From: an uncultured Planctomycetia bacterium
Lineage (GTDB): Bacteria > Omnitrophota > Gorgyraeia > Duberdicusellales > 4484-171
Reading direction: 5' to 3'
Length of the DNA: 39,611 bases
Assembly (NCBI GenBank): GCA_964536195.1
Contig: CAZHVO010000003.1
Coordinates: 1,797-41,407, forward strand
The translations under genes were made by a program, and so were the position numbers. Within the stretch, counting starts at the first letter, position 1. Each line of letters begins with the position of its first letter. The notes under the pieces are model-generated. The model made no database searches and was not told the origin of the DNA. It saw nothing but the letters and a program-made list of their open reading frames with translations. Shown one piece after another: positions 10,059-37,293 of the stretch.

Positions 10059-10472
10059 ATGAAGTTTCAGTTAAGCTGTAAAATTTATCCTTTTGAGGCT
10101 GTTCTAAATGCTTCCTATACTTTTATTGACCGTGTCTATATTTTTTTGGATAGTAATTTAAAGGAGGACAAGGTAATAGTTTCTTTTAAAGAAAAACAAA
10201 AACTTTCTCCCAAAAAATTGGAAGATTTGCGCGGAGAATTTATGAATGAGCTATTGCATTGCGTTTTGAGATACAAGATAAGTAAAAATAACAAAAAGAT
10301 TAGAGAATATATTGTCGGACGCGCTTTATATTCCGCTCTGCCTTTACCAATGGAAGAAGCTCTGCTGGGAGAGGATTCGGGGAAACTAGATTATCAGGAA
10401 GACCCTTTAGGTATTACTATACCTTGGGAAGAGAAGCATGGAAAGAAAAAAAATGCTAAATCTAAAGTTTAA
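10059..10472 (+). CDS. hxsD: His-Xaa-Ser system protein HxsD
   Basis: KIYPFEAVLNASYTFIDRVYIFL and EFMNELLHCVLRYKI..IREYIVGRAL; just upstream of HxsB; SD aggag. Confidence 0.8.
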   Translation: MKFQLSCKIYPFEAVLNASYTFIDRVYIFLDSNLKEDKVIVSFKEKQKLSPKKLEDLRGEFMNELLHCVLRYKISKNNKKIREYIVGRALYSALPLPMEEALLGEDSGKLDYQEDPLGITIPWEEKHGKKKNAKSKV

Positions 10473-10665
10473 TACTAAAATATATAAAATGAAGGCAATT
10501 CAAGAAGCCATTTTGGCCTATTCTGATAGGGCGAAATTTTCTCTATCTAATGATAAAAGGTATATACAGGTGCGGATAAATAAAGTAGACTCGGAAATTA
10601 AGGCTATTATTGGTGATGAGTTTGCCAATTATGTATTGGGGTTGACTAAAAAATGGATACAATAA
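10438..10665 (+). CDS. Second, short HxsD-like protein (alternative start 10453)
   Basis: KIYKMKAIQEAILAY...DEFANYVLGL parallels KIY...EFMNELL of the upstream HxsD; overlaps both neighbours. Confidence 0.7.
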   Translation: MERKKMLNLKFNTKIYKMKAIQEAILAYSDRAKFSLSNDKRYIQVRINKVDSEIKAIIGDEFANYVLGLTKKWIQ

Positions 10666-12125
10666 TTGAGAATGTAGATAGGCAAAAGGTTGGTTTTTGC
10701 AGGTTTAAAAAACTGAACGATAAGTATTTGCTTACCAATGATGTTGGCGATTACTGTTTTTTAACTCCTGTGTATTTTAAGGCATTGTTTTTGGGTAAGC
10801 TTGAGCAGATAGAGAAAGATAATCAGCATAAGTATCAGGAACTTGTTGATAAGGGTTTTGTGCGTAGTCTATTAGATTTCGATAGGTTGATTGAGAAATA
10901 TTCTACAAAGAATATGGCTTTGAAGGAAGGGCCGGTTCTGCATATAATTGTAGTAACACTAAGATGCAATCATGCGTGTGTTTATTGTCAATCTAACGCC
11001 GGCGGAGTTGATAATAAAACGTTGGATATGGATATATCCGTAGCAAGGAAGGTTGTTGATAGAATTTTTGAATCTCCCGGATCAAACATTACTATTGAAT
11101 TTCAGGGGGGAGAGCCTATGCTTAACTTTAAAACTGTGAAATTTATTGTTGAGTATGCACGAGAAAAAAATAAAGAGAAAAAGAAAAGTTTAAAGATAAC
11201 AATGGTTTCTAACTTAACTTGTGCTACCGAAAAGATAATAGCATTTTTAATAAAAAATGATGTTGATATTTGCACCTCTATTGACGGCCCGGAATATGTT
11301 CATAATAAAAACCGGATTATTTTCGATAAAAACAAGAATAGCTATAAAAGAACAGTAAAATGGCTGAAGAAAATCGAAGATAAGCTTGGTGCGAAAAAGT
11401 TTAAACATAGACCTAATGCTTTGTTGACGTTGACAAAACGTTCTTTTACTTATTCTAAGGAGATTGTTGACGGATATGTAAAGATTGGTTTGGACGGTAT
11501 CCATTTGAGACCAATGAATACATTTAGTTTGTCTAAAAAAGTGCCTCGCACTTTAAGCTATACCTGGGCTGATTTTATTGCTTTTTATAGAAAGACAGTT
11601 GATTATATTATTGAACTAAATCTTAAAAAGAGATTTTTCTATGAGAGGACGGCAGTGGTATTTTTGATTAAGATTCTTACTGATAACGACCCGAATTACT
11701 TGGATATTCGTTCTCCCTGCGGGGCCGGTATTGGACAGCTGGCCTACGATTATAATGGAAATGTATATACCTGTGATGAAGGTAGAATGTTGAGCAGGAT
11801 TGGAGATGAGTCATTTAAACTAGGCAATGTAATGCATAATACTTACTCGGAGATGATTAATCACCCCACAGTTAAGGCAATGTGTGTTGCTTCTTGTTTA
11901 GATAATCTTCCCGGATGCAGCCAGTGTGTATATAAGCCGTATTGCGGTGTTTGTCCCTTACTGAATTATGCAGAACAAGGCAGTATTTTTATCCAGCAGC
12001 CTAAAAACGAGAAGTGCTTGATGCAAAACGCAATTTTAGATTATCTTTTTGAAAAATTAGAAAATAAAAGTTGCAAGGATGTATTTAAAAAATGGGTGGA
12101 CCATTTTATGTCTGGAAATCAATAG
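10653..12125 (+). CDS. hxsB: His-Xaa-Ser system radical SAM/SPASM maturase HxsB
   Basis: YLLTNDVG, LHIIVVTLRCNHACVYC, EFQGGEP, DIRSPCGAGIGQLAYDYNGNVYTCDEGRM, CSQCVYKPYCGVCP. Confidence 0.9.
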   Translation: MDTIIENVDRQKVGFCRFKKLNDKYLLTNDVGDYCFLTPVYFKALFLGKLEQIEKDNQHKYQELVDKGFVRSLLDFDRLIEKYSTKNMALKEGPVLHIIVVTLRCNHACVYCQSNAGGVDNKTLDMDISVARKVVDRIFESPGSNITIEFQGGEPMLNFKTVKFIVEYAREKNKEKKKSLKITMVSNLTCATEKIIAFLIKNDVDICTSIDGPEYVHNKNRIIFDKNKNSYKRTVKWLKKIEDKLGAKKFKHRPNALLTLTKRSFTYSKEIVDGYVKIGLDGIHLRPMNTFSLSKKVPRTLSYTWADFIAFYRKTVDYIIELNLKKRFFYERTAVVFLIKILTDNDPNYLDIRSPCGAGIGQLAYDYNGNVYTCDEGRMLSRIGDESFKLGNVMHNTYSEMINHPTVKAMCVASCLDNLPGCSQCVYKPYCGVCPLLNYAEQGSIFIQQPKNEKCLMQNAILDYLFEKLENKSCKDVFKKWVDHFMSGNQ

Positions 12126-12139
12126 GTAAGGAGGAGATT

Positions 12140-12844
12140 ATGTGTTTGAAAAAATTGATCCTTTTGGTAGCGATCGTTTGTATTGGTATGTTTTATTCAA
12201 ATATTATTTTTGCCGAAAGTTTAGAAGATTTAACAACTAATTTTAATATTGATACGATTGAAAAAGATGTTTTTCAAAGATATTCTAAAGCAGAAGGGTT
12301 GTTAGGTGCATATTTAATATGTACAGCAGCAGTGAGAGGTGACCAGACAGTGTGTGATGACCTAAATTCGGATGAAGCCCGGTTTTGTAGTAAGCAATTT
12401 AGCTCGATGCATAATTTTTATAGAGAGTTAGTTACAACAGGAACAGTTACTTCAAAAGCTATAGAAAGTTGTATGCAAACTGAAAACGGCGTAACATCCC
12501 AAGATTGTCGGGATTTGGCAGAGGCATTCATTTCTAAGGATGCGTCTATATGTGAAGTATCAGAATGTAGTGCGATAATAAAAAGAGACGTTGGGTCTTG
12601 TAAGGAAGATAAAGGATGTCGGGATAGGGTTTATTATATAAAAGCAGTTGAAAAGAATAATGCCAAAAGTTGTGATAAGATAAAAGATGAATCTCTTAGA
12701 ATGCTTTGTATGGGAAGTATTACCCTAGATGAGAAGATATGTAAACAATGTAGTGGTTTTAAAAAATTTATTGAGCGGTATCATGAAGACCTAATAAAAA
12801 TGGAGGTGGGCGATGAAGAAGAAAATCAGGCTACCCAAGATTAG
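12140..12844 (+). CDS. Secreted Cys-rich repeat protein
   Basis: Start at ATG 12140 after SD aggagg; signal peptide ending IIFA|E; 13 Cys in the mature part with five (D/N)xxxC units. Confidence 0.7.
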   Translation: MCLKKLILLVAIVCIGMFYSNIIFAESLEDLTTNFNIDTIEKDVFQRYSKAEGLLGAYLICTAAVRGDQTVCDDLNSDEARFCSKQFSSMHNFYRELVTTGTVTSKAIESCMQTENGVTSQDCRDLAEAFISKDASICEVSECSAIIKRDVGSCKEDKGCRDRVYYIKAVEKNNAKSCDKIKDESLRMLCMGSITLDEKICKQCSGFKKFIERYHEDLIKMEVGDEEENQATQD

Positions 12845-13109
12845 GATAGAAATAAAGGATTTCCTTTTAAGTGAAGAGGGGAAAATTACTAAAAAGAATA
12901 TTGCTAAGTTGGGGATGTCTTTAGCAGTTATGGCGATAATGTTTAAACCCCAGGCTGCTAGTGCAGCTCATTCTAGCCATGGTAACCACGGTAATGCTTT
13001 TTTTTCTGGCGATAGAGGTGGGCATACTTCAGGAACACCACATGCTTCGCATGGTTCACATGGCTCGCATGGTTCACATGGCTCGCATGGTTCGCATGGA
13101 CAATGGTAA
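12813..13109 (+). CDS. hxsA: His-Xaa-Ser repeat RiPP precursor (HxsA-type)
   Basis: SD ggaggtgg; 51-aa leader, then AHSSHGNHGNAFFSGDRGGHTSGTPHAS(HGS)x5HGQW; lies among HxsD/HxsB/HxsC-like genes. Confidence 0.9.
   Translation: MKKKIRLPKIRIEIKDFLLSEEGKITKKNIAKLGMSLAVMAIMFKPQAASAAHSSHGNHGNAFFSGDRGGHTSGTPHASHGSHGSHGSHGSHGSHGQW
13041..13103 (+). repeat. 9-bp tandem repeat x7 encoding His-x-Ser triplets
   Basis: catgcttcg catggttca catggctcg catggttca catggctcg catggttcg catggacaa; the 18-mer catggttcacatggctcg occurs twice exactly. Confidence 0.95.
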
Positions 13110-13118
13110 AACGTTTGG

Positions 13119-14072
13119 ATGCAACAGCTGATAATTGTATTGACCCACCGCTGCAACCTCAGGTGTCGATATTGCCCCGTTTTGCATAATTCCGCTACAA
13201 TAAATTATAATACTGCTATAATAGCCATTGATTTATTTTTAAATGGGCAAGATAGAAAATATTTAATTAAATTTTCGGGCGGAGAGCCGTTGTTAGAATT
13301 TACTTTATTGAAGGATATCGTAATATTTGCCAGAAATAAGGGGCTAAAATTAAATAAGAGTGTTCAGTTTCAAATAACGACAAATGGTATCTTGCTTAAT
13401 GATGCGGTTATAAATTTTTTCAAAAAAAGTAAAGATATTGAATTAATAGTAAGCCTGGACGGCAGCAGAAATACTCAGCTGAAGAATAGAATATCGGTTG
13501 ATAAAAAATTAAATTCTTCTGACAGTATCATCTTTCAAAAGCAGAAAATTCTTTCGATCCCTCGCGTAATCATCAATATGGTAGTTGCGCCTAATGAGGT
13601 GAAGAAATTCTATCGTAATTTTCTTTATATTTTGAAACTGGATTTTTGCCGCTTTATTTTTTTACCGGCCTATTTCGTTTACTGGAATAAAGAAAAAATT
13701 AATAAATTAAAAAAGGAATTTTGTAGGATAGCGGAATTTATAAGTAAAAATAAAAATAGAATAAATATTTATGTTAAAAACTTAGATTTGATAAGCCCAG
13801 CGCCTCTTTTTAATAGTGGGTTAGTCATTGATTGTAATGGAGATGTGTTTAGTGACAATTTGGTTCTTTCCCAACGATTTGCTTATCTGCGTAGGCAGCT
13901 TAGGGTTGGAAACATTAAGGATTTCTCTTTTAAACCTTTCTTTTTTAGACAATCGATCGATATAAATCACTTAATTGACCGGGTTACTCCCAAGTCTATT
14001 CTAGGGTCAACTAGAACAGTTGATCGTGTCTTAACGGATTTTGTTAACCGCCTAAAAAATGAAACGAGCTGA
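13119..14072 (+). CDS. Radical SAM protein (group B here: no C-terminal Cys cluster)
   Basis: LTHRCNLRCRYC, FSGGEP, TTNG, SLDG; C-terminal NSGLVIDCNGDVF. Confidence 0.88.
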   Translation: MQQLIIVLTHRCNLRCRYCPVLHNSATINYNTAIIAIDLFLNGQDRKYLIKFSGGEPLLEFTLLKDIVIFARNKGLKLNKSVQFQITTNGILLNDAVINFFKKSKDIELIVSLDGSRNTQLKNRISVDKKLNSSDSIIFQKQKILSIPRVIINMVVAPNEVKKFYRNFLYILKLDFCRFIFLPAYFVYWNKEKINKLKKEFCRIAEFISKNKNRINIYVKNLDLISPAPLFNSGLVIDCNGDVFSDNLVLSQRFAYLRRQLRVGNIKDFSFKPFFFRQSIDINHLIDRVTPKSILGSTRTVDRVLTDFVNRLKNETS

Positions 14073-14949
14073 TATTAAAACCGGGTTTAATTGTAATAAT
14101 CATTGTCGGTTTTGTGTCCAGGGTAATAAGAGAGTTTTGTATGGCGATAAAAGCACGGTAGAAATAAAGAAAGCTTTACAGGAGGCAAGAAACGATTGCG
14201 ATAGTGTGGTATTTACCGGCGGAGAACCAACAGTCAGGAAAGATATTATTGATTTGGTAAGATATGCTAAGAGTTTAGAATTTGAGACTATTCAGATACA
14301 GAGTAACGGCCGGATGTTTTGCTATGAGAAATTCTGTACGGCAATAATTATTGCCGGAGCGAATGAATTTTCTCCGGCAATTCACGGTCATATCGCACAA
14401 CTCCATGACTTTTTGACTGCTTCAAAGGGTAGTTTTAAGCAGAGTATCACTGGAATTAAAAATTTAAAGAAACGGGGGCAAAAAGTAATCACTAACACTG
14501 TTATTACGAAATCAAATTATCGGCATTTACCGGAAATTGCGCGACTTCTATCTTATTTAAAAGTAGATCAGTATCAATTTGCCTTTGCTCATGCTTTAGG
14601 AACGGCTGGAGAAAATTTTGAATCAATCATTCCTCGAATGTCAATGATTATGCCTTATGTGAAAGAAGGCTTGGATATTGGAATCGTAGCCGGAAAAAAA
14701 GTTATGACCGAAGCAATTCCTTATTGCCTTATGCAGGGGTATGAAGAATACATTGCTGAAAAGATTATCCCTGATACAAAAATATACGATTATGATCGTA
14801 TAATAGATGATTTTACAGAAATACGTCGAAAAGAAGGCAAATTAAAGGGGCCGAAATGCAAACAATGTAAACATTTCCAATATTGCGAAGGCCCCTGGCG
14901 GGAATATCCCGAAAAATTTGGCTGGACAGAATTTGTGCCAAAAATGTGA
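14059..14949 (+). CDS. Radical SAM protein, HxsC-like (group A here)
   Basis: CNNHCRFC, FTGGEPT, IPYC, CKQCKHFQYCEG. Confidence 0.88.
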   Translation: MKRADIKTGFNCNNHCRFCVQGNKRVLYGDKSTVEIKKALQEARNDCDSVVFTGGEPTVRKDIIDLVRYAKSLEFETIQIQSNGRMFCYEKFCTAIIIAGANEFSPAIHGHIAQLHDFLTASKGSFKQSITGIKNLKKRGQKVITNTVITKSNYRHLPEIARLLSYLKVDQYQFAFAHALGTAGENFESIIPRMSMIMPYVKEGLDIGIVAGKKVMTEAIPYCLMQGYEEYIAEKIIPDTKIYDYDRIIDDFTEIRRKEGKLKGPKCKQCKHFQYCEGPWREYPEKFGWTEFVPKM

Positions 14950-15036
14950 GATCAAATATTGGATCTCTGTAATCAGAGGACATTTGTAAAAGCTTACCTA
15001 AGAGAGGGATAATTTTTAGGAGCGAGGGCAGCTATA

Positions 15037-15957
15037 TTGGGAAGCGGCGAATTCCTTCATGTCTCTATTAACAATCGATGCAATAATAATTGCATATTTT
15101 GCATGGAAACTGATGCTAAAAATTTGATTCCTCCCTCTTCTAAGAGGCTATCCATTCTCTTCCAGAAAGCAATAAAAAAAACAGATAGTGTTTTATTTAC
15201 TGGACCTGAACCCACAGTAAATAAATCTTTGGTAAATTATATAAAGATGGCCAAAAAAATAGGATACAAAGATATACGTTTAGTAACCAATGGCCGTCTT
15301 CTTTGTCACTTTGATTATGCTCGTGAATTACTAAAATCTGGTTTAACAGAATTCAACATTGCTCTTCATGGGAGTAAAAGATCGATTCATGATGCCATGA
15401 CAAGAACACCTCATAGCTTTGATCAAACAATCAAAGGATGCTATAATCTATCGAAGTTGAAGTCAGATTATCTATTTCGATGGTATATTAGTTTTACACT
15501 TACCAAAGTTAACTCACCCGATTTGTACAACTTTCTTAAATTAACAGTCTTCTTAAAAGGAGTTAATGGGAGTATTATTAATACGGTGATTCCTCAAGGA
15601 GGAGGATTGATCTTTTTTAAGAATTTAATTTCAAACTATACTGATCTAGCTGATTCTTTTAAATCAGCAATTGAGCGGTTAAAGAAGAATCCTAAAGTTC
15701 AATCAAAAGACCGATTCAATATCAGCATACTTGGTTTACCAGTCTGTTTGTTGGTAGGCTATGAGAAATATGCCAGCGAGTACGAGAGCATCTTAATGAA
15801 TTCCGGAAACAAAAAAATCAATATTAGAAAAAGAGAACGTTCCAAAAAATTAAAAAGAGAAAAATGTAAAGAGTGCAAATATGATTCGTTTTGTGAAGGA
15901 GTTTGGTGGCGATATATAAAAATGAAAGGTTGGCGGGAATTTCACCCGATTAAATAA
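15037..15957 (+). CDS. Radical SAM protein, HxsC-like (group A)
   Basis: CNNNCIFC, variant FTGPEPT, LPVC, CKECKYDSFCEG; TTG start uncertain. Confidence 0.85.
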   Translation: MGSGEFLHVSINNRCNNNCIFCMETDAKNLIPPSSKRLSILFQKAIKKTDSVLFTGPEPTVNKSLVNYIKMAKKIGYKDIRLVTNGRLLCHFDYARELLKSGLTEFNIALHGSKRSIHDAMTRTPHSFDQTIKGCYNLSKLKSDYLFRWYISFTLTKVNSPDLYNFLKLTVFLKGVNGSIINTVIPQGGGLIFFKNLISNYTDLADSFKSAIERLKKNPKVQSKDRFNISILGLPVCLLVGYEKYASEYESILMNSGNKKINIRKRERSKKLKREKCKECKYDSFCEGVWWRYIKMKGWREFHPIK

Positions 15958-15989
15958 TGTGTTAAAAATTTTATCCTAACTGAATAAAA

Positions 15990-18800
15990 ATGAATGAAAA
16001 TACATCAAAGACTAGATATCGTGATAAAATCGTTGGTCGAACCGATAGCTTTCCGAATGCAATTTGTTTGGTAAATAAATTCAAAAAGACAATTAAAAGA
16101 CCAGAATTGTTAAGGAAAGTTAAAACAATTTTTTCAACTTCAAGAAAGAATAGCATTGTATGCACGCTAGCTGATTATCGAGCCCTTGTAGATGTATATC
16201 AGCGGAGTCGAAATCGAAAAGCCGAAAAAAGCAGTTCTAAATCTAAAATTCTTCTTTTCAGGAATATTTTTAATTCTTCGGGTAAAGAGAAAAACCAAAG
16301 TTTTAGCTCAGCAACTCTTTATTTGGCTTCTGGCCTAAAGAAGGCAGGTTTTAGAGTCGTTTTTAGCAATTCCAAGATTTCTTTGGAGAACGACGATTTT
16401 ATTACGCAAAAAGAGGAGTTGGAGAAAATTTTGAGAGCGAATTCCGACATAAACATTATCGGTATTTCTCTCTGTGAAGACTTTTTCGAAAAGGCTAAAG
16501 AATTAATTAAATTTCTAAGAAAAAGAACGAAGGCTTTTATCGCAGTGGGTGGTGTAATGCCAACACTAACTCCTGAACATGTTTTTGTTCATTTACCGGA
16601 TGCGAATTTTTTGGTCAGGGGCGCTGGTGAAGAAGTTCTTCCCAAAATGGCTAAAATTTTAGGAGGAAAGAATATTGATTCTTCTTTCGACAAAGGAGAG
16701 GTAGAAAATCTTTTAAAACTTAAAGGCGTTCTTTTTCAGAATAAATTTATTTTTATTTCTGCAGCTTTAGATAAAGTTAATAATATTACAGATTACGACT
16801 GTTCTTTTCTTGATTTCAGTTTCCTGAAGGCGGAAAATATTACTAACGGTCTAATTCTTTTTACTTCCCGAGGATGTTTTAATAATTGTTTTTTTTGCAC
16901 TTCGCCGGGAAAGGGTGAATATGTAGCTAAAAGTTTTAAGAATTTAAAAACAATTATTAAGAACTATAAGCAGAGGCTCAACGAAATTTTTAAGAAAGAT
17001 ATCCCACCTTCTGCTTTACGGATTTCTTTCTATGATGATGATTTTCTCGCCGATACTCAAAGAGCTAAATCTTTTTTCTTGTATCTGAAAAAACAACCAT
17101 TCCGCATAAATTTTTTCCAAACCGGCATAAACTCTTTTTTTGAAAAAGTTGGAAAGAAGTACTCCGGCAAGTTAGACCGGGGACTTCTTAAGAGTTTGGC
17201 TCCGGAAATTTTTGACCCCTCAAAAGAAACAAATATTTATATAGGACTTGAAAATATTTCCGATAGAGAACTTACAAGATTAGGCAAGGGGTACAGCCAT
17301 AAAAAAGCCGAAAAAATAATAAATACATTAGCTCTGAAGAGAATTAAAATCACTTGTCACTTTATAGCTTCAAATCAATTAACTTCTTTAGACAATATTG
17401 TAGAAAATTTATTCAAGTTTTCTGTTTTCCAAGCTCTTTACGGACAATATTTTAAAGTTTTAACTCCAATTATTCCTTACCTTGTGTCTCTTTATCCATC
17501 GGCAAGTTATAAAATTTCTTTAATAAATAAACGAGAAAAATTTATTAATATTCGTCGTAATCTATTAGTGGAAAATTATCCAGAGTATGATTATTCTCTA
17601 GTAGAGAATGATATTCCTATGAGCAAGGCTGTACAAGCCTTGGTTCCTTTACTTTATGATTCATTTTTGGCTAATAAGAATTATTTTAAAATTTTAGATG
17701 AGATGTTATCTAATCTCCTGCTTTTACAAGAAAAAATTCCTTCGGCACAAAAAGAGATATCAAATGTGGTTAGGAAATATAATAATTATTACCTGATGAT
17801 TGATAAAAAGGTATCTCGTATGGTAACCCCCGGCCGGAATAACCTGCAATTAATGATTACTAAGCGATGCCACCTTCGCTGTAAATATTGTCCGATTGTT
17901 AAAAAAAATGAAGACATGAGCGAAGATGTGCTGTATCAAGCAATTAATTTTCTTTTTACCGCTTCCGGAGACACTCTTCGCTTGGATTTTACTGGTGGAG
18001 AGCCGTTGTTAAGATTTGATTTGGTAAAAAAAGGAGTTGAGTACGCTAAAAAATTAGCCCGAAAGAAAAACAAAAATATTTCTTTTTACCTGGTAACAAA
18101 TCTTATTGCGATGGAGGATGATATTGCTGATTTTTTGGCCAGAGAAAATTTTTTCCTGGAATTGTCAGTAGACGGGGAAGAAAAATTCCATAATCTTTAT
18201 AAAATCGGAAGAGACCATAAAATAAACGCTTATCAATCAACAATAACTAAATTGCAGAAAGTATTTTCAAGAAAAATAAATAATTATGCGGTGATGGTAG
18301 TAAATCCAGCCACTGTTAGATATCTGTGGCGTAATTTTTACCATATTATGAAATTAGGATTTAGAAGAATCGGTGTTAATTATGCCCTTTGCTCAACATG
18401 GGAAGCAGATGCCCGAAGGGAATTTTTCCGACAATTTGATTTAATTAAGGAAGCTTTACACCTCCATATTAAAAAAGGGATAGTCAGCTTAACTAATCTA
18501 GAGTCGAGAAACGAACCGGCTATTCTAAATAGTGAAATAATGGTTGACGTTGACGGGAGAGTGCGACTATTGACCGATTACCTTTTTGAAAAAGAAATTA
18601 AAAAGAAACCGCCCTTTTTAGGAGAAATAGGAAACTTTAAGAATATAAATGAAATTTTTTTGACGCAGTTTCGAACTTTATCCCGGTTGTTTCGGTATCA
18701 GGCAACTCCTAAAATAAAAAAGGTTATTCTTAATAATATCGAAATGGGAAATTTGACAAAAATCTATTTTGAAGAATGGAAAAGCAAATTAAAGCAATAA
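15990..18800 (+). CDS. Cobalamin-binding radical SAM domain fused to a group B radical SAM domain
   Basis: LYLASGLKKAG, VGGVMPT, VRGAGEE, TSRGCFNNCFFC, FYDDDF; second domain ITKRCHLRCKYC, FTGGEP, EPAILNSEIMVDVDG. Confidence 0.85.
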   Translation: MNENTSKTRYRDKIVGRTDSFPNAICLVNKFKKTIKRPELLRKVKTIFSTSRKNSIVCTLADYRALVDVYQRSRNRKAEKSSSKSKILLFRNIFNSSGKEKNQSFSSATLYLASGLKKAGFRVVFSNSKISLENDDFITQKEELEKILRANSDINIIGISLCEDFFEKAKELIKFLRKRTKAFIAVGGVMPTLTPEHVFVHLPDANFLVRGAGEEVLPKMAKILGGKNIDSSFDKGEVENLLKLKGVLFQNKFIFISAALDKVNNITDYDCSFLDFSFLKAENITNGLILFTSRGCFNNCFFCTSPGKGEYVAKSFKNLKTIIKNYKQRLNEIFKKDIPPSALRISFYDDDFLADTQRAKSFFLYLKKQPFRINFFQTGINSFFEKVGKKYSGKLDRGLLKSLAPEIFDPSKETNIYIGLENISDRELTRLGKGYSHKKAEKIINTLALKRIKITCHFIASNQLTSLDNIVENLFKFSVFQALYGQYFKVLTPIIPYLVSLYPSASYKISLINKREKFINIRRNLLVENYPEYDYSLVENDIPMSKAVQALVPLLYDSFLANKNYFKILDEMLSNLLLLQEKIPSAQKEISNVVRKYNNYYLMIDKKVSRMVTPGRNNLQLMITKRCHLRCKYCPIVKKNEDMSEDVLYQAINFLFTASGDTLRLDFTGGEPLLRFDLVKKGVEYAKKLARKKNKNISFYLVTNLIAMEDDIADFLARENFFLELSVDGEEKFHNLYKIGRDHKINAYQSTITKLQKVFSRKINNYAVMVVNPATVRYLWRNFYHIMKLGFRRIGVNYALCSTWEADARREFFRQFDLIKEALHLHIKKGIVSLTNLESRNEPAILNSEIMVDVDGRVRLLTDYLFEKEIKKKPPFLGEIGNFKNINEIFLTQFRTLSRLFRYQATPKIKKVILNNIEMGNLTKIYFEEWKSKLKQ

Positions 18801-29134: not shown

Positions 29135-29219
29135 TCTTTGTTGGAGGCGTATTTGATTAAATTAGATTCTTCCATAAGGGTTTAGCTTTGGTAAAGATAA
29201 CCTTTTTATTACATAACAA

Positions 29220-30149: not shown

Positions 30150-32239
30150 ATAATAATCAAAGAGATTTGACAGCACAGGTTAAGAAAAAATGGGTTAGGC
30201 TAACTCGGGTGTGCAATAACCGCTGTCTATTCTGCTTGGACAAGAATGCACAGAATGGTAGTCATTTATCCCTAGCTGAGATAAAAAAAGTTTTTCAAGC
30301 CGGGCGTAAAGAAAAGGCAGAAAAAGTTATTTTAAGCGGCGGCGAACCTACTTTGCACCCGAAATTTATTGATATTGTAAAAAAAGCTAAAAAACTGGGC
30401 TATACTAAGATTCAGGTTATTACCAATGGCAGGATGTTTGCTTATAAGAAATTTTTAGATCAGGCAATAAATGCTGGTGTTGGTGAGGTGACTTTTTCTA
30501 TACATGGACATAATCAGAGATTACATGATAAACAAACCGGAGTAAAGGGGTCTTTTTTCCAAACTTTGGCCGGTTTAGCGGCTGCTTTACAGACTCAGGG
30601 GCTTATAGTAAATGTAGATATTGTGATTAACAAAATCAACATACGCTATCTGAAAGACATTATAGAGTTTTATATTAATTCAGGCGTTTTAGAGTTTGAT
30701 CTCCTGCAAGTTATGCCTTTTGGCCGAGCCTGGGACAATAGAGAGGTTCTTTTTTACGACATTGAAGAGTCACTTCCATTTTTAAATGAGGCTTTCCAAT
30801 TATCCAGGGACCCCAATCTACATATTTGGACCAATCGGTTTCCGCCGGAATACCTTGAGGGTTTTGAAGATTTAATTCAACATCCAGTTAAGCTATATGA
30901 CGAAGTAGGCGGACGTCGTGACATGTTTGATAGATTCCTTAATAATGGAAAAAAAATGGATTGTAAAGGCAAGAAATGCTCATATTGTTTTTTGGAAAAC
31001 TTTTGTAAAGATGTGATACTGCTAAAAGAAAAAGGTGAATTGACCTCACACGTTCTCCCTTTTTGTTTAAAAGAGGCGAAAGAGACCCGCGATGTAAAGA
31101 TGCAGTGTAAATATACATTGAGTAAAGACAACAGGGGTATTTTTAAGTTCCTTTCTTTTTATATTCAGCATAGATATTTTATAAAGGGGCTAAGGTGCAA
31201 AAAGTGTAAATTTAATGATCGCTGCACAGGAATGCAATGTGATTATATCCGTAATCATGGATTCCAGGTTTTGAAGCCGATTCTGGACAAGAGAACAAAA
31301 TATAAACAAACTGTTTTGCAAAAAAACATTCCCTACAGGCTTCTTCGGTTAAATTTAGCCTGCAATGCTAATTGTCTATTTTGTAATGTGCCGCCGGAGT
31401 CTTATCCGTTGCAAGAAATGTCGACTCAGCAAGCTAAATCCGAAATTGATCGTCTTATTGCTTTAGATAAAGAATTAAGATTGGATATTACCGGTGGTGA
31501 ACCTACTTTAAGGGGCGATTTAGAAGAGTTAATCGAATATGCATCTAAAAAAGGAGCAAAGGTAATTGAAATTCAGACCAATGGTATTTTATTGGCTAAT
31601 AAAGAGTACGTAAAAAAATTAAAATTAGCGGGCCTTGGTAAAGCATTCTTGGCTCTTCATTCTTGTTATCCTGAGATTCACGATTTTCTTGTCGGCAGAA
31701 AGGGTGCTTTTGAAAAATGTGTTACTGGTATTAAAAACTTATTGAAAGCCGGCGTTGAAGTCATTCTGAATCCGGTAATTACTGTTAAGAATTATGAATG
31801 TTTACCGGATTATATAAAATTTATCAAAAACAATTTTCCCCGGATAAAATCCGTATCTCTTTCGGTTGTTCAGCCGCGAGGCCGCGCAGGAAATAATAAA
31901 TATTTAATACCCCGTTACAAGGTAATTTCCTCTCATATAAGAAAAGCATTGACACTGGCTAAAAAATATGGATTGATTATCTATAATCCCTATTGTGGAG
32001 TGCCATTATGTATAGGGGGATGGCATCGCTACCCGGAGCAGTGTGTGGAATATTGCGAGAATCTTTTGAAGTCAAAAAGCGGTTTCGGAGAAGATGATTT
32101 TAATGCCGATAAGGTGAAAAGTCCCGACTGTTGCAAGTGCGATTTAAATAATTTTTGCAATGGCGTATGGAAAGAGTATGCCGCGATTTATTCTTTTTCT
32201 GATTTAAAGCCGGTCAGGCTGAAAAAGCAAGCTATCTAG
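30146..32239 (+). CDS. Tandem two-domain HxsC-like radical SAM protein (A-A)
   Basis: CNNRCLFC/LSGGEPT/LPFC/CKKCKFNDRCTG and CNANCLFC/ITGGEPT/VPLC/CCKCDLNNFCNG. Confidence 0.88.
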   Translation: MNNNQRDLTAQVKKKWVRLTRVCNNRCLFCLDKNAQNGSHLSLAEIKKVFQAGRKEKAEKVILSGGEPTLHPKFIDIVKKAKKLGYTKIQVITNGRMFAYKKFLDQAINAGVGEVTFSIHGHNQRLHDKQTGVKGSFFQTLAGLAAALQTQGLIVNVDIVINKINIRYLKDIIEFYINSGVLEFDLLQVMPFGRAWDNREVLFYDIEESLPFLNEAFQLSRDPNLHIWTNRFPPEYLEGFEDLIQHPVKLYDEVGGRRDMFDRFLNNGKKMDCKGKKCSYCFLENFCKDVILLKEKGELTSHVLPFCLKEAKETRDVKMQCKYTLSKDNRGIFKFLSFYIQHRYFIKGLRCKKCKFNDRCTGMQCDYIRNHGFQVLKPILDKRTKYKQTVLQKNIPYRLLRLNLACNANCLFCNVPPESYPLQEMSTQQAKSEIDRLIALDKELRLDITGGEPTLRGDLEELIEYASKKGAKVIEIQTNGILLANKEYVKKLKLAGLGKAFLALHSCYPEIHDFLVGRKGAFEKCVTGIKNLLKAGVEVILNPVITVKNYECLPDYIKFIKNNFPRIKSVSLSVVQPRGRAGNNKYLIPRYKVISSHIRKALTLAKKYGLIIYNPYCGVPLCIGGWHRYPEQCVEYCENLLKSKSGFGEDDFNADKVKSPDCCKCDLNNFCNGVWKEYAAIYSFSDLKPVRLKKQAI

Positions 32240-32390
32240 ACTATGCCGGGAGTTAAAAGGAAGAATTTATATTAGAACCAGCGGCTATCACAATAACCCT
32301 GGCCCTTAACCGAAGGGTAACCCTGATAAGCAACAAAGTAAAAAAAGTTAGATTTTAACAAAGGACAGTAACTATTTAAAAGTAGTAATA

Positions 32391-33410
32391 ATGATTGTTA
32401 TGGGCCTCGCGGATAAATGTAATTTTAATTGTTTATTCTGTTTAGATAGACAGAGTAGGGGGAAAGGTTCTCCGTCATTACAAGAAATCAGAGGATTATT
32501 TGAAGAAATTAAGAGAAGCAACGAAAATACAATTATGTTGATGGAAGGGGAGTCGCTTATTAGACCAGATTTTTTTGAGATATTGGAAGAAGCAAAGAGA
32601 TGCAAATTAAATGTGTATATTACGACTAATGGTTCAATGCTTAGTTATTATGATTATTTAGTAAAGATTATTAAGAGAGGCGTGAGTCAAATAAACCTTT
32701 CTATACATTCTCATATTCCTGCTATTGCCAATGCCATATCGAGAAATAGCTCTTGCTATTCTTTACAGAGAAAGGCATTAGAAAATATCGATTTATTTAA
32801 TTCCTTGCAAAAAAGAAAGGTAAAAAGAATACCTTTGTATATCAATACAGTTGTTTGTAAATTAAACTATAAACATTTAGAGGGCTTGGTTCTTTATCTA
32901 AAGGGCCTATTAAAGCACACTGATTTTAAAATAAAGTTCAAGTTTATGGTCCGCGGTGGTATTAATATTAATCTTTATAGGAAGCTTTTGCCTTCCTTAA
33001 AAGAAATGAAGCCTTATCTCAAGAGGGCGATAAGCATATTAGGTATAAATAAGGTAATATTCTCTGGTTTTCCTTTGTGCGTTGCGCCTTCCTACGAACG
33101 AGCATGTGTTGAATTGTGGGAGGCATTATATAGCCATAATTTGTATCTCGATTCTTACAGATTAAAGAACTCTAGAACGCAGAGAGACGTAGTTGACCAG
33201 GAATATTGTAAATATAAAGAGTGTAAGGGTTGTTCCTTGAATTCTATATGTTTGGGAGTAAGAAAGGATTACAAGAAGTTAAATCCCGATTTTAATTTAA
33301 CATTATCGAAAAGCAATCCCCAAGAGGTATTTAAGTTTATGAAGTGTTTTCCAGGGAAATCTAAAATAGCAAATCTTGAGATAGAAGAAAAGGAAATATG
33401 GCCAGCTTAG
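32391..33410 (+). CDS. Radical SAM protein, divergent HxsC-like (group A)
   Basis: CNFNCLFC, variant LMEGES, TTNG, FPLC, CKGCSLNSICLG; start uncertain. Confidence 0.82.
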   Translation: MIVMGLADKCNFNCLFCLDRQSRGKGSPSLQEIRGLFEEIKRSNENTIMLMEGESLIRPDFFEILEEAKRCKLNVYITTNGSMLSYYDYLVKIIKRGVSQINLSIHSHIPAIANAISRNSSCYSLQRKALENIDLFNSLQKRKVKRIPLYINTVVCKLNYKHLEGLVLYLKGLLKHTDFKIKFKFMVRGGININLYRKLLPSLKEMKPYLKRAISILGINKVIFSGFPLCVAPSYERACVELWEALYSHNLYLDSYRLKNSRTQRDVVDQEYCKYKECKGCSLNSICLGVRKDYKKLNPDFNLTLSKSNPQEVFKFMKCFPGKSKIANLEIEEKEIWPA

Positions 33411-34330
33411 CCTACATACAGGTTTGTCGTATATGCAATCAGGAGTGTAGGTTTTGCTCCAATCCTTCGCTGGATAAGACTATATCGTTAAAGAAGGCTA
33501 AGAGTCTTGTTGACAATTATATTAGGCAGGGATATGAGGGGGTAATTTTAAGCGGAGGAGAGCCGACGATGTACCCTTATCTTGTAAAACTTATATCTTA
33601 TATAGCAGCTAAAGGATTACCGATGCGGATAATTACTAATGGTCAAAAAACAGCGAATTTTGAATATATTAAGTCGCTTACTGATGCCGGTCTAAAACAT
33701 ATGGGCCTATCTATATATTCTCATAAGCCGCGTATTCAGTCTTTTCTCACTAAAAATAAAGATTCACTCAAGAATATAAAAATAACTCTTAATAATATCG
33801 AAAGATTAAATATGAGCGTTGACATCGGGACGGTGATTAATAAATATAATGCCGGACATCTGAGCGAAATTGTTGAATGGCTGGTAAAAGAATACCCTTT
33901 TATTCGCCATTTTATCTGGAATAATCTTGATGCTTCAATGAACCGTGCTTCTGAGAATCCGGATACAATACCATCACTGATTGGTTTTGAATTAGAACTT
34001 TATAAAGCAATGTTGTTTTTACACAATAAGGGTAAAACTTTTAGAGCCGAAAGAGTGCCTTTGTGCTACATGACTGAATTTGCGCATTGTTCCACCGAGG
34101 CAAGAAAAATAATAAAAAAAGAAGAAAGAACAATTTATTTTTTGGACAAAAAGGGTTTGACATTTCAGAAAGGATGGGCTTACGGAAAAACTGAGTGCTG
34201 TAATGAATGTTCTTTAAATAAGATATGTCCCGGTTTATACTTAATAGATAAGTATTTTTCTTCTAAAGAGTTATATCCTGTTTTTGTTTCAAAAGATGAA
34301 GTAATAAAACGCGTTTTAGCCAACCCATAA
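33398..34330 (+). CDS. Radical SAM protein, HxsC-like (group A)
   Basis: CNQECRFC, LSGGEPT, VPLC, CNECSLNKICPG. Confidence 0.88.
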   Translation: MASLAYIQVCRICNQECRFCSNPSLDKTISLKKAKSLVDNYIRQGYEGVILSGGEPTMYPYLVKLISYIAAKGLPMRIITNGQKTANFEYIKSLTDAGLKHMGLSIYSHKPRIQSFLTKNKDSLKNIKITLNNIERLNMSVDIGTVINKYNAGHLSEIVEWLVKEYPFIRHFIWNNLDASMNRASENPDTIPSLIGFELELYKAMLFLHNKGKTFRAERVPLCYMTEFAHCSTEARKIIKKEERTIYFLDKKGLTFQKGWAYGKTECCNECSLNKICPGLYLIDKYFSSKELYPVFVSKDEVIKRVLANP

Positions 34331-34331
34331 A

Positions 34332-35219
34332 ATGGCAAAAAGATTAGATATAAAAGTCACTTTTAAGTGCAACAACAGTTGTAAATTTTGTGTTCAGGGG
34401 GATAAGAGAAAGTTTTGCCAAGATAAAAAGTTTTATGAGATTAAAAAGATTTTAAAAGAATCAAAGAGTGATTATGATGAAGTTATATTTACCGGCGGAG
34501 AACCTACCATAAGGCCTGATATCATAGAATTGGTAGAGTATGCTAACAAATTAAAATATAGGGTGCATATCCAAACCAATGGGAGGATGTTTTTATACAG
34601 AGAATTTTGTAAAAGGATGATAGAGGCCGGTGCCGCAGCATTTACAGTTTCAATACATGGCCATAACGCTCGGCTGCACGACGCTCTTACTGGGGTAGAG
34701 GGGAGCTTTGATCAAACCATTGCAGGTATTAAGCATCTTTGTTCTCTCAAGGCAGAAGTGTTTACCAATAGTGTTATCACCACTTTAAATTATTGTTTTT
34801 TACCCAAAATAGCTGTTATGGTGATTAATTTAGGTATATTTGAATATCGGCTTTCTTTCCCTCACATTTTGGGAAGAGCATTAACCAATAGAGATTGGAT
34901 TGTGCCGCGAAAAAAAGCAGTCGTCCCTTACGTAAAGAGGGCATTGGAAATCGGCATTAAGAAAGGGCGGATTCCTTTAACTGAGGCTATACCGCATTGT
35001 TTTCTAAGCGAATATGTTCATTGTGCTTCTGAAACCTATATGCCCGAGACAAAAGTGTTTGATAATAAATTAATAGTAGATTTTAGCCGTTGGCGGATGG
35101 AAGAGGGAAAAAATAAAGGGCCAAAATGCAGAGAATGTAAATATTTTGAATGTTGCGAGGGTCCCTGGCGGGAATATCCTGAAATTTTCGGCTGGGATGA
35201 ATTTACTCCTATTAAATAA
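34332..35219 (+). CDS. Radical SAM protein, HxsC-like (group A), close paralogue of 14059..14949
   Basis: CNNSCKFCVQG, FTGGEPT, TEAIPHC, KGPKCRECKYFECCEGPWREYPE. Confidence 0.88.
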   Translation: MAKRLDIKVTFKCNNSCKFCVQGDKRKFCQDKKFYEIKKILKESKSDYDEVIFTGGEPTIRPDIIELVEYANKLKYRVHIQTNGRMFLYREFCKRMIEAGAAAFTVSIHGHNARLHDALTGVEGSFDQTIAGIKHLCSLKAEVFTNSVITTLNYCFLPKIAVMVINLGIFEYRLSFPHILGRALTNRDWIVPRKKAVVPYVKRALEIGIKKGRIPLTEAIPHCFLSEYVHCASETYMPETKVFDNKLIVDFSRWRMEEGKNKGPKCRECKYFECCEGPWREYPEIFGWDEFTPIK

Positions 35220-35224
35220 TTTGG

Positions 35225-36181
35225 TTGAATATGTCGACTAACATTATATCTAATATAATTTTTTTGCCGGTCATTTTGTTTATTGGTTGCGTTACAAGCT
35301 ACGAAGATTTTACGATTTCAAAGATTAGGAATAAATGGATTTTAATGGGATTACTCTATGCATTTGCAGTATATTCGGTATCCTGGATTTTGTATGCTTT
35401 AGCCGCAAGTGAAATCATAAGTCCTGTTATCGGAAAAGTAACCTCTGATCTGGTATGGATTTTTGATAAATGGTGTATAAATTTAGTGATAAGCATTATT
35501 GTGGCTTATCTGTTATGGCATTTTAAAATGTGGGGGGCCGGCGATGCAAAACTTTTTATTTGTTATTCTTCACTGATTCCAATGGCGCAGTACTCCAAAG
35601 TGTATTTTGATTATTATTTTGCCTCGTTTTGGCTATTAGTGGCTATTTTTATACCAGCAACAATCTTTTTCTTTGTGCGATCGTTAGCCTATCTTATTAA
35701 AAAAATTACTTTTAGAAACATTAAAGAAACGCTGCCGAAGATGATTAAGGAAAGGTTGGGCAAAGTTAATAAAATTGAGATAGCCAGAACTATATTTGGC
35801 TTTTTCGTTCTTTTCCTATTTTTTAGAGTATTAAGACAGGAATTTCAGAATTTACTTCGCGGAGTTTTGCCCAATCAAAATATCGTAATGCTCTTACCTT
35901 TATTGGCGTTCCGGCCGCTATCTAGAATTTTCAAAAAGAATATCAAATTTACAGTTATTGCTTTTGTTTTTTTAACAGCATACCTTATTTTTAAAATGTT
36001 ATATTCTTGGGAAAGATTTATCCGTGAGATAAGCGGTACACTGGGATGGGTTATATTTATTATGGTATTATTTCCAACTGTCAAAAAGATAATAAATCTT
36101 TATACGGAAAGGATTACTCAAAAAACTAGTCCTTTTGCTCATTGGATGTTTTTAGGGATGCTAATTGTTTGGTTTCTTTAA
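35225..36181 (+). CDS. A24-family prepilin/preflagellin-type aspartic peptidase (start 35225 TTG or 35231 ATG)
   Basis: First catalytic Asp in SYEDF..KIRN, second in WGAGDAKL (GxGD), C-terminal PFAHWMFLG; multi-TM. Confidence 0.8.
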   Translation: MNMSTNIISNIIFLPVILFIGCVTSYEDFTISKIRNKWILMGLLYAFAVYSVSWILYALAASEIISPVIGKVTSDLVWIFDKWCINLVISIIVAYLLWHFKMWGAGDAKLFICYSSLIPMAQYSKVYFDYYFASFWLLVAIFIPATIFFFVRSLAYLIKKITFRNIKETLPKMIKERLGKVNKIEIARTIFGFFVLFLFFRVLRQEFQNLLRGVLPNQNIVMLLPLLAFRPLSRIFKKNIKFTVIAFVFLTAYLIFKMLYSWERFIREISGTLGWVIFIMVLFPTVKKIINLYTERITQKTSPFAHWMFLGMLIVWFL

Positions 36182-36192
36182 CATAGGAGGCT

Positions 36193-37293
36193 GTGATGTT
36201 TAAATTCAAAAATGTTTCGATGGGGCTCATAATCCTTTGGTTAATCTCGATGAATTTCGCTAATTCATATGCTGGCGAGGTTGCTTTGTATAGAGGTAAC
36301 TTAGAAAGGACAGGGGTGTTTTCTTCTTCGGCGCTCAAAGAGCCCGTTGAAATAAAATGGAGATTTAAAGCAAAAGGTGAGATAAGCTCTTCTCCAGTAG
36401 CTCACGAAGGGGTAGTTTATTTTGGAAGCTATGACGGAAATTTATACGCCTTAGATGCTAACAGCGGTGAAGAAAAATGGCGGTTTGATACCGGTGATTG
36501 GATACGTTCTTCGGTAGCTGTATTCGGAGAAAAAGTCTATTTTGGGAGCAGAGACGGCAATTTTTATGCCCTGAGTGCCAAAACAGGTAAAGAAATATGG
36601 AGATACCATATCGGAGATTGGATAATTTCTTCTCCTGCTGCATATGAGGGCGTGGTCTATTTTGGAAACGGAGGAGCCTTCTACGCTTTGGATGCATTGA
36701 ACGGAGAATTAAGATGGAAGGTTGAAACAGGTTTAGCTGTTTGGGCATCTCCGGCTATATACAAGGGGATAGTTTATTTTGGGAGTTTTAACAAGAGTTT
36801 TTATGCAGTTGATGCCAAAACCGGTGAAGAAATCTGGAAGTTTAAGGCAGGAAGTCAGATAGAGAGTTCACCCGCGATAGTCGAGGATATAGTCTATTTT
36901 GTAAGCCGTGATGGAGGCCTTTACGCTTTGGATACAGCAACGGGTCGCGAGGAATGGAGATTCAAAGTAGATGCTGAGATAATCACTTCACCGGTGATAT
37001 TTAAAGATATTATTTATTTTGGAACCAACAAGGGGTTATGTGCAGTAGATATAAAGATGAGTCGAGAAAAATGGAGATTTAATGTTGGAACCTGGGTGCA
37101 CTCTTCACCGGCGATAGCCGGGGGAGTGCTTTACTTTGGCGGATATGGCATCTTTTATGCCTTGGATAGCAGTGATGGTAGGGTTTTATGGACTTTTGAA
37201 ATGGCAAAAGGGTCAACATTCTCGTCACCTTCCGTATATGATGGTGTAATTTATTTCGGTGCTGTTGATTATTCTCTTTATGCTTTTGAATAG
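36193..37293 (+). CDS. Secreted PQQ-like (BamB-type) 8-blade beta-propeller protein
   Basis: SD aggagg; signal peptide ending NSYA|G; eight SSP-x4-G-x-VYFG..LYALD..G..W repeats. Confidence 0.88.
   Translation: MMFKFKNVSMGLIILWLISMNFANSYAGEVALYRGNLERTGVFSSSALKEPVEIKWRFKAKGEISSSPVAHEGVVYFGSYDGNLYALDANSGEEKWRFDTGDWIRSSVAVFGEKVYFGSRDGNFYALSAKTGKEIWRYHIGDWIISSPAAYEGVVYFGNGGAFYALDALNGELRWKVETGLAVWASPAIYKGIVYFGSFNKSFYAVDAKTGEEIWKFKAGSQIESSPAIVEDIVYFVSRDGGLYALDTATGREEWRFKVDAEIITSPVIFKDIIYFGTNKGLCAVDIKMSREKWRFNVGTWVHSSPAIAGGVLYFGGYGIFYALDSSDGRVLWTFEMAKGSTFSSPSVYDGVIYFGAVDYSLYAFE

Follow-up and report, generated by a model that had tools for sequence, protein, structure and literature searches.

The stretch of DNA considered here, 39,611 nucleotides from an uncultured bacterium placed in the Omnitrophota (GenBank assembly GCA_964536195.1, contig CAZHVO010000003.1, positions 1,797 to 41,407 of the forward strand; hereafter called the window), raises a simple question: what could 14 genes for radical S-adenosylmethionine (rSAM) proteins do beside the gene of one short His-Xaa-Ser (HxS) peptide? 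An initial annotation, made from the letters alone, had read the region as a hyper-expanded Hxs cluster and had counted 14 rSAM genes with 20 rSAM domains, 19 intact CX3CX2C motifs and one Cys-to-Ser variant, and these counts were confirmed by regular-expression search, Pfam matches and an alignment of counterparts. The region, called the island below, extends from position 9538 to 37293 of the window and is an unbroken co-directional run of about 24 genes in ~28 kb, mostly abutting and all on the + strand. The same gene set was recognized in genomes labeled as members of several phyla, and on balance we favor the reading that the island is one conserved multistep pathway by which the peptide, HxsA4, would be modified and exported.

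The first genes of the island define its type. HxsD (10059-10472; TIGR03976, 66.1 bits against a cut-off of 50), the rSAM/SPASM maturase HxsB (10653-12125; TIGR03978, 502.3 bits against 370; CX3CX2C at residue 105) and the 98-residue precursor HxsA4 (12813-13109; NF038313, 71.1 bits against 55) all passed their NCBIfam models. As had been proposed, the locus is of the Hxs type and far exceeds the four genes (HxsD-HxsB-HxsC-HxsA) of the canonical HXS system in the accessible text of its description (Li et al., Nat Commun 2026, PMC13128918). A further small gene, overlooked in the initial annotation, encodes an HxsD-like protein of 75 residues (10438-10665; NF038315, 73.3 bits against 41); it fills the apparent 180-nucleotide gap between HxsD and HxsB (10472-10653), and its start may be an inner ATG. 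Since the HxsA4 and HxsD-like models both matched, the NCBIfam curators had already modeled this type of precursor; in contrast, the cut-off of the "rare" HxsC4 model (NF038332) was not reached. The unit also starts earlier than the 10059 given before, namely at 9538, with a gene for a secreted protein of 166 residues (SP166, 9538-10038; N terminus signal-peptide-like by eye) that is kept at the head of related loci, its counterparts sitting directly before HxsD. SP166 matched no Pfam or NCBIfam family; its nearest Atlas cluster was an Elusimicrobiota hypothetical protein (score 0.92), and its weak likeness to tail-fiber or adhesin models in the Atlas remained below a TM-score of 0.5. Between HxsB and HxsA4 lies the gene of a Cys-rich protein of 250 residues with a signal-like N terminus (12092-12844), which matched none of the families searched and for which an Atlas search gave nothing usable; proteins of similar size occupy this position in G253, L040 and G277 (G and L numbers denote the genomes and loci used for comparison). 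The order at this end is SP166, HxsD, HxsD-like, HxsB, Cys-rich protein and HxsA4, followed by the rSAM genes.

HxsA4 is built from a Lys-rich leader with a conserved FLxSEEGK motif, a hydrophobic stretch ending in AASA, which by eye reads as a signal-like segment, and a His-rich tail. The tail, AHSSHGNHGN...HGSHGSHGSHGSHGSHGQW, contains eight H-x-S and two H-G-N units, has 10 His in ~46 residues and ends in HGSHGQW. That it is the only visible precursor had been claimed before and was borne out: among the 87 + strand open reading frames (ORFs) of 20 to 100 amino acids there was no other His-rich candidate, and HxsA4 alone has at least 8% His. The leader motif and the C terminus SHGSHGQW are common to all eight HxsA proteins of large loci (mega-clusters) that were aligned (alignment A6), whereas the HxsA proteins from small loci of relatives end otherwise.

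PF04055 was above its cut-off in all 14 rSAM proteins. The regular expression for CX3CX2C matched 20 times in the listed + strand ORFs, 19 times within rSAM domains; the remaining motif, at residue 309 of ORF 19980-20972, belongs to the Cys-rich tail of a U32-like protein without a Radical_SAM Pfam match. The twentieth rSAM domain is the C-terminal half of the 20969-23170 product, in which SNNNSLFS (nucleotides 22322-22345) stands where the counterparts in G253, G375 and G277 have CNNxCxxC; the three cluster Cys have become Ser, yet the four C-terminal Cys typical of its group are retained. All-against-all blastp comparison of the 20 domains exactly reproduced the classes proposed earlier, with 10 HxsC-like, six group B, two B12-binding rSAM and two SPASM domains.

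Six of the HxsC-like domains are proteins of their own: the products of 14059-14949, the copy closest to the HxsC of a canonical-size locus; 15037-15957, in an orthologous clade with a support of 100; 29220-30149 (clade support 100, 9 rows); 32391-33410, on a long, unplaced branch, at most 29% identical to the compared loci and lacking a clear counterpart elsewhere; 33398-34330 (clade support 99); and 34332-35219, which is 52% identical to the 14059-14949 product. Two more make up the 30146-32239 protein, each half falling into its own starred clade; between them (residues ~303-394) lies an extra copy of the HxsC-like C-terminal Cys-rich segment, corresponding to model positions 214-306. The last two are the degenerate half of the 20969-23170 protein and the fourth domain of a 1,293-residue protein (23151-27032), in which four PF04055 stretches follow one another, group B three times and then HxsC-like, and whose domains are partitioned differently in other genomes. 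Besides those three, group B, which has an HxsB/PapB-like core, comprises the 13119-14072 product (assigned by NCBIfam likeness and domain blastp), the C-terminal half of the 15990-18800 protein and the 18776-20011 product with its N-terminal extension (alignment A3; clade support 98). The B12-binding rSAM domains are the N-terminal halves of the 15990-18800 protein (936 residues, two PF04055 stretches; counterparts elsewhere have 849-937 residues and 43-54% identity) and of the 20969-23170 protein, with PF02310 scores of 39.5 and 51.1 bits, respectively, against a cut-off of 32.1. The SPASM class consists of the 27013-28125 product (PF13186, 49.2 bits against 21.5), with counterparts at 36-61% identity in G253, G375, G277, G419 and G420, and of HxsB, which stayed just under the same cut-off at 20.1 bits and matched the full-length HxsB model.

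Group B was closest to PapB, CcpM, SCIFF and HxsB; the likeness to these maturases, which include the ranthipeptide enzyme PapB, extends over the rSAM core, and single domains reached 122-145 bits against cut-offs of 340-500. In place of a SPASM domain, which it lacks, group B has a conserved C-terminal half of its own. The family is small; 265 representatives, of which many are multidomain proteins, were counted at E ≤ 1e-30 among 1.84 billion. The family of the HxsC-like 14059-14949 protein was larger, with 2440 proteins at E ≤ 1e-20, the best 120 at 60% identity or more, and carried the name "radical SAM protein" only or generic and unrelated names. Its AlphaFold2 (AF2) model (predicted local distance difference test [pLDDT] 87) has a generic rSAM fold, and a fold search returned generic rSAM neighbors (BlsE, GDGT-MAS, SkfB, SuiB and viperin) and no functional lead. 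Membership in HxsC4 was rejected on score, and none of 401 sampled genomes of the phylum matched HxsC4 at E ≤ 1e-60. The 10 His-x-Ser/Asn units and 10 HxsC-like domains of the window could suggest one enzyme per repeat; this idea was also rejected, since it fails in G253 and L041.

Are the many enzymes recent copies of one another? The window paralogs are 23-39% identical, with the 14059/34332 pair (52%) as the sole exception, and DNA repeats are limited to short conserved motifs; recent tandem duplication was therefore rejected. The 1.17-Mb assembly has group B and HxsC-like paralogs in this cluster alone; elsewhere, only about six generic rSAM ORFs responded. In a provisional tree of 100 HxsC-like domains, nine of the 10 window domains fell into eight clades that also hold domains of other genomes and have a support of at least 95 in the Shimodaira-Hasegawa-like approximate likelihood ratio test (SH-aLRT); the 14059 and 34332 proteins share one of the clades (13 rows, SH-aLRT 96) with the gene at the HxsC position of G009. 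The corresponding tree of 55 group B domains placed four of the six window domains in clades with SH-aLRT values of at least 95 and the other two at 90-94. Judged from these trees, the paralogs are old and each is kept as an orthologous group of its own, and such separately conserved groups point to many distinct steps rather than to redundancy.

Domain fusions tie the two classes together. Counterparts of the 13119 (group B) and 14059 (HxsC-like) proteins are fused in G272 to a protein of 595 residues, and L037 has an ORF with the same length and the same best match. A fusion of group B with HxsC-like domains is also found in the 1,293-residue protein of the window and mirrors the canonical HxsB/HxsC pairing. 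An assembly artifact as the origin of the fused genes was rejected: Logan contigs from two independent DNA runs span 22010-23272, 23526-25333, 24081-28124 and 25305-27207 with zero differences and take in the junctions and most of the four-domain gene, which, because of this identity, is no assembly artifact. The 21 junctions between 10059 and 37293 comprise 10 overlaps, five gaps of 1-17 nucleotides and six gaps of 32-180 nucleotides.

The initial annotation had presented the island as a singular hyper-expansion, and this did not hold. HxsB was found at E ≤ 1e-40 in six of 41 relatives, counting G000; the loci are mostly smaller, and that of G009 has the canonical size. When the 401 genomes of the phylum were scanned with the group B alignment, at most five candidates being scored per genome, 57 gave matches at E ≤ 1e-25 and only seven (G000, G277, G272, G375, G253, G270 and G399) gave full-length matches of more than 230 bits. 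Almost all window genes have counterparts, ~45-68% identical and similarly ordered, in the regions of G272, G253, G375 and G277; among them are the fusions of a B12-binding domain with group B or HxsC-like domains, the group B/HxsC-like multidomain proteins, the SPASM, U32-like and membrane proteins and HxsD/B/A. Counted in the regions fetched from each source, HxsC-like and group B domains numbered 10 and 6 in the window, 13 and 5 in G253, which is thus larger, 11 and 6 in G277 (on two contigs), 8 and 6 in G375, 8 and 3 in G272, and 11 and 5 in G420 (L044 plus L062). A collection-wide scan with the alignment of the 18776-20011 orthologues returned 25 loci labeled as Omnitrophota, Elusimicrobia, "Spirochaetes," Methanosarcinales, Aenigmatarchaeota and Deltaproteobacteria metagenome-assembled genomes (MAGs). 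Several rSAM families of the window recur in each of the 12 loci that were examined, and HxsB and HxsD were present inside the 10-kb flanks of four of these loci (L037, L040, L041 and L045); in five further genomes searched as a whole, HxsB was above its cut-off in four, the miss being a 0.8-Mb archaeal MAG whose contig breaks off. Wherever the sequence extended far enough, HxsD/B/A were there. The proposed linkage to Hxs therefore stands: because the extra rSAM genes travel with HxsD/B/A, a suite occurring apart from HxsA/B/D was not encountered in the examined genomes. By these comparisons, the mega-cluster is conserved, recurs within the same class and across several phyla and is no one-off.

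Two further observations concern the spread of related loci. The same rSAM suite is present in archaeal MAGs, at L039 and L065 (G423, labeled Methanosarcinales) and L046 (G424, labeled Aenigmatarchaeota), and G423 also holds HxsB, HxsD and a 1,642-residue fusion with three motifs; these occurrences reflect either transfer into archaea or mis-binned contigs. Mid-sized Hxs loci at L015/L016 (G025), L018 (G015) and L020 (G039) have HxsA proteins that contain Cys and end in SY or CY, three to 10 rSAM genes of other types and, by eye, repeated glycosyltransferase-like genes; they elaborate the Hxs core in a second, different manner.

What would such a pathway do? The initial annotation had treated canonical Hxs as an uncharacterized system for a ribosomally synthesized and posttranslationally modified peptide, but it is a published antiphage system of Escherichia coli. 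According to the accessible text of that work (PMC13128918), HxsB, HxsC and HxsD process HxsA with a change of +8 Da on an HxS motif, the chemistry of which is unsolved; HxsC binds HxsD, and mature HxsA is periplasmic and blocks the entry of phage DNA. HXS systems are assigned there to Pseudomonadota in 99.7% of cases and have four genes in more than 99.8%. A J Biol Chem paper of 2022 features HxsB and HxsC as network clusters only, and a description of an enlarged Hxs cluster was not found in searches of the literature on Hxs systems and on rSAM proteins of Omnitrophota and Elusimicrobia. The window resembles the E. coli system in that HxsD, HxsB and a His-Xaa-Ser protein pass the family models, in that an HxsC-type rSAM protein is encoded alongside and in that the N-terminal part of the precursor looks suited to processing and export. 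It differs in having 14 rSAM genes instead of two and the order HxsD, HxsD-like, HxsB, Cys-rich protein, HxsA4 instead of D-B-C-A, in its precursor of 98 residues with HGS instead of basic repeats, and in the added genes for B12-binding rSAM, SPASM, U32-like, putative GxGD-protease and secreted proteins. Moreover, the hosts here are uncultured anaerobes and not Pseudomonadota. A complex of the 14059-14949 protein with HxsD was predicted with a score of 0.47, compared to 0.01 for the best control (partner pLDDT at least 67, runs agreeing in at least 45% of contacts). This was rated as weak support: 58 of 80 solved complexes and two of 110 mismatched pairs attained the mark for a complex, and the range up to 0.60 held only seven of the 80 but both of the passing mismatches.

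The accessory proteins would fit into such a scheme at different places. The U32-like Fe-S protein (19980-20972) scored below the Pfam U32 cut-off (17.3 against 22.4 bits), but a profile of its eight counterparts matched PDB entry 5d88 (E = 1.6e-5, 82 positions); its residues C182, C186, H192 and C218 are invariant, and CX3CX2CX2C is found in its tail. The peptidase U32 family also includes Fe-S hydroxylases. The polytopic membrane protein of 318 residues (35225-36181) is probably a GxGD (A24-like) aspartyl protease, as suggested by its invariant Asp motifs and by a fold match: six counterparts all keep D28, N36, the AGD107xKL motif and P303, and the top match in VIA-align was FlaK (3s0x_B; Z 9.9, root mean square deviation 3.3, 154 aligned, the next match having a Z of 4.8), where helical bundles may reach a Z below ~13 by chance. 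Sequence searches of Pfam, NCBIfam and the PDB gave no match for this protein, and its profile retrieved only designed helical proteins from the PDB. Independently of the cluster, the first ORF of the window (5-598) matched the prepilin-type N-terminal methylation motif (PF07963, 21.6 bits), and its product is a possible natural substrate of an A24-type peptidase. The last gene of the island encodes a PQQ/BamB-like beta-propeller with a signal-like N terminus (36193-37293; PF13570, 212.5 bits; PF13360, 174.9 bits), a counterpart of which, 46% identical, lies at the end of the G253 cluster. Thus, among the accessory functions named by the initial annotation, the beta-propeller and DUF1566 are solid, while U32 and the zinc ribbon remained below their cut-offs and A24 found no match among the hidden Markov models.

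Taken together, we infer a pathway in which all enzymes would act on HxsA4, with its charged leader, export-like hydrophobic stretch and ten His-x-Ser/Asn units, as the substrate. HxsB, the enzyme at the HxsC position (14059-14949) and HxsD or the HxsD-like protein would form the core, as in the canonical system, and about a dozen further rSAM enzymes would each change the His/Gly/Ser tail in a different way, one after another. Cross-links or dehydrogenations may come from the HxsC-like and group B domains, methyl transfer from the two B12-binding domains and, possibly, an oxygen-independent hydroxylation from the U32-like protein. The putative GxGD-type membrane protease would then cut off the leader, and the product and the secreted proteins of the cluster would work jointly outside the cytoplasm. 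Should the island be one such pathway, our first guess, though less likely than not, is that its product sits in the envelope and has a protective role comparable to that of the E. coli HXS effector.

A number of points weigh against this reading. No gene of the window reached the HxsC model (TIGR03977, cut-off 267.9; best domain 105.1 bits, in the 14059-14949 protein; best whole protein 215.9 bits, from two domains) or the HxsC4 model (cut-off 500; 231.5 bits for the two domains of the 30146-32239 protein, 197.5 for the best single domain, that of 15037-15957, and 168.5 for 14059-14949). Of the HxsA-D families against which the initial annotation had proposed a search, the precursor, HxsB and HxsD reached their cut-offs and HxsC did not, and "HxsC-like" therefore means likeness and not membership. 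HxsA4 had no Pfam match and is devoid of the peptidoglycan-binding domain of E. coli HxsA, and since HGS repeats take the place of basic ones, the DNA-binding model may not apply here. The counts of HxS units and of rSAM domains do not run in parallel, with six units and 18 group B plus HxsC-like domains (13 HxsC-like) in G253 and 17 units in L041. For the candidate protease, the AF2 model is of poor quality (pLDDT 62), and at E ≤ 0.001 Foldseek retrieved nothing. The trees were quick IQ-TREE runs with SH-aLRT as the only support measure. Promoter-like sites were no more frequent between 9300 and 29250 than in shuffled sequences (68 against 73.2), and terminator-like sites did not exceed shuffles there either (15 against 12.1), so an operon structure is unsupported. 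RNA-library contigs from one metatranscriptome fit 12767-13224, which takes in the entire HxsA4 gene, and parts of the HxsD-like (10498-10681), Cys-rich (12446-12596) and Lcl_C (28429-28587) genes; the cover of HxsA4 is what a highly expressed precursor would give, but such contigs are no proof of transcription, and no contig of that library fits any rSAM gene, where absence of cover is not evidence. Chemistry, substrate and product of the pathway are predictions, and nitrogenase-like genes found inside an Elusimicrobia cluster fit a cofactor chemistry at least as well as a peptide defense.

Those genes lead to the main competing explanation, in which the product is a peptide-derived metal-binding compound or redox cofactor and no defense effector. 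Cross-linking, methylation and hydroxylation would turn the His-Gly-Ser tail of HxsA4 into an imidazole-rich chelator or cofactor, and a nitrogenase-like reductase would add a reduction step in Elusimicrobia. In G420 (L044, labeled Elusimicrobia GWA2_56_46), genes for an SP166-like protein, HxsD, HxsB, HxsA and five rSAM proteins are followed on a single strand by a NifH-NifD/K fusion (741 residues; PF00142, 221 bits), a NifD/K-like gene (495 residues; PF00148, 142 bits) and the remaining rSAM suite, the two nitrogenase-like genes being at positions 121-3613 of L062 (G420:C15:50001-68000), which adjoins L044. Because of this gene order, the rSAM genes around the nitrogenase-like genes are, at least in this genome, part of an Hxs-type mega-cluster. 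In G419, NifH-like genes lie ~17 kb from the rSAM suite on one contig. The accessible text of Meheust et al. 2020 (10.1101/765248) describes as many as 13 rSAM genes, some of them with a fused B12-binding domain, beside NifH/D/K paralogs in Elusimicrobia, with Elusimicrobia bacterium GWA2_69_24 named; it takes the rSAM context, as a guess, for the synthesis of a tetrapyrrole cofactor and makes no link to Hxs in that text. L041 and L044, both with Elusimicrobia GWA2 labels, share with this suite the NifH-like genes on the same contigs and carry the gene families of the window plus HxsD/B/A. The published group VI nitrogenase paralogs, whose function a 2026 review still lists as unknown (PMC13474568), may belong to the Hxs pathway.

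A cofactor would also be in line with the 10 His in ~46 residues of the HxsA4 tail, with the two B12-binding rSAM domains, the U32-like Fe-S protein and the PQQ-type propeller, and with the cofactor synthesis that published authors see in the rSAM-rich context (10.1101/765248; PMC13474568, each as far as available). Against it, the window genome, unlike the published suite, and G422 have no NifH-type gene beyond weak P-loop matches. A core cofactor would not be expected to be missing in congeners, yet the corresponding sites of G006 and G004 are empty and only the six of 41 relatives have HxsB; moreover, the sole Hxs system tested so far is antiphage according to the accessible text (PMC13128918). 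We therefore consider the cofactor explanation rather unlikely. There is a slimmer chance still for its boldest form, in which mega-Hxs is a ribosomal route to a new peptide-derived metallocofactor or chelator, with about fifteen distinct rSAM steps turning the (His-Gly-Ser)n tail of HxsA4 into an imidazole-based macrocycle and, in Elusimicrobia, the group VI reductase as an additional enzyme.

The chromosomal site bears on a second alternative. The island lies between a SuhB-like gene (8683-9459) and a DUF748 gene (37727-39043), with tRNA-Pro and tRNA-Arg (37353-37700, + strand; tRNA-Pro at 37353-37429) at its right border. In the congeners G006 and G004, these two flanking genes are direct neighbors, ~470 and ~330 bp apart, respectively; G002 has a small Hxs locus after matching SmpB and SuhB-like genes, and in G001 ~58 kb of different cargo (G001:C1, ~17.9-75.7 kb; L057-L059) separates the SuhB-like from the DUF748 gene. 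This cargo includes about ten B12-binding rSAM genes, a gene for a 1,299-residue rSAM protein with three motifs, glycosyltransferase-like genes and two U32-like genes, and no HxsB. Because the content of the site differs among congeners, the cluster is accessory cargo in a variable hotspot. A 20-nucleotide exact copy of the tRNA-Pro 3' end at ~37571-37590, 140 nucleotides downstream of tRNA-Pro and directly before tRNA-Arg, may be the scar of an integration at the hotspot; an integrase was not seen in the window. The island has a GC content of 34.7%, compared to 38.2% in the assembly (1.17 Mb, 124 contigs, 91.7% complete), of which it makes up 2.4%. The DNA of the window was matched in several lake-water metagenome runs, and the closest named relatives of its proteins and loci are labeled Candidatus Omnitrophota or Omnitrophica.

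In such a hotspot, two or more unrelated rSAM sets could have accreted to the 28 kb, with only the first few genes being Hxs. The empty, small or differently filled sites of the congeners agree with this, as do the widest gaps of the island, at 28125, 29134 and 32239, and the block of the U32-like, 29220, 30146 and 33398 genes, which holds together as a subunit in G375, G277 and L042. The run is also interrupted by an Lcl_C (DUF1566) gene (28203-28697; PF07603, 111.6 bits against 34.9) and a gene for a Cys-pair, zinc-ribbon-like protein (28715-29134; sub-threshold DZR and Zn_ribbon matches only), which have no counterpart in the 17 compared Hxs loci, are specific to the window and look like a local insertion into the cluster. 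However, the same families stay with HxsD/B/A across families and phyla, group B and HxsC-like domains are fused in several combinations, and their paralogs are found nowhere else in the window genome; this repeated linkage and the fusions make accretion improbable. For the same reasons, we regard as no better founded, and likewise improbable, the idea that the extra enzymes act on a lipid, glycan or tetrapyrrole of the envelope with the Hxs genes as mere neighbors: B12-binding rSAM enzymes often act on small molecules, the 14059 model is equally close to peptide maturases and to BlsE, GDGT-MAS and viperin, and the smaller Hxs loci of G025, G015 and G039 hold the glycosyltransferase-like genes seen by eye, but group B is likest, though below cut-off, to the peptide maturases PapB, CcpM, SCIFF and HxsB, the linkage to HxsA/B/D is tight, and Pfam and NCBIfam scans revealed no lipid, sugar or tetrapyrrole pathway genes in the window cluster.

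Some of this was already known, namely the NCBIfam models of the precursor and its partner, the Elusimicrobia rSAM suite under another name and the published function of the canonical cousin. With a canonical core joined by about a dozen rSAM enzymes, a conserved one-pathway island would mean that a single small His-rich peptide passes through a long sequence of different radical reactions, and it would be among the most enzyme-dense peptide-modifying clusters known to us. The cluster offers many natural variants for working out how HxsB-type and HxsC-type enzymes act. Since the rSAM suite is part of an Hxs-type cluster, in which a peptide substrate can be seen, the question of the group VI nitrogenase paralogs becomes testable, and if the macrocycle route were true, their reductase would be provided with its first substrate and context. 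The value of the finding thus lies in the number of distinct, conserved rSAM steps, in their spread by transfer among uncultured anaerobes and in the link to the group VI nitrogenase paralogs.

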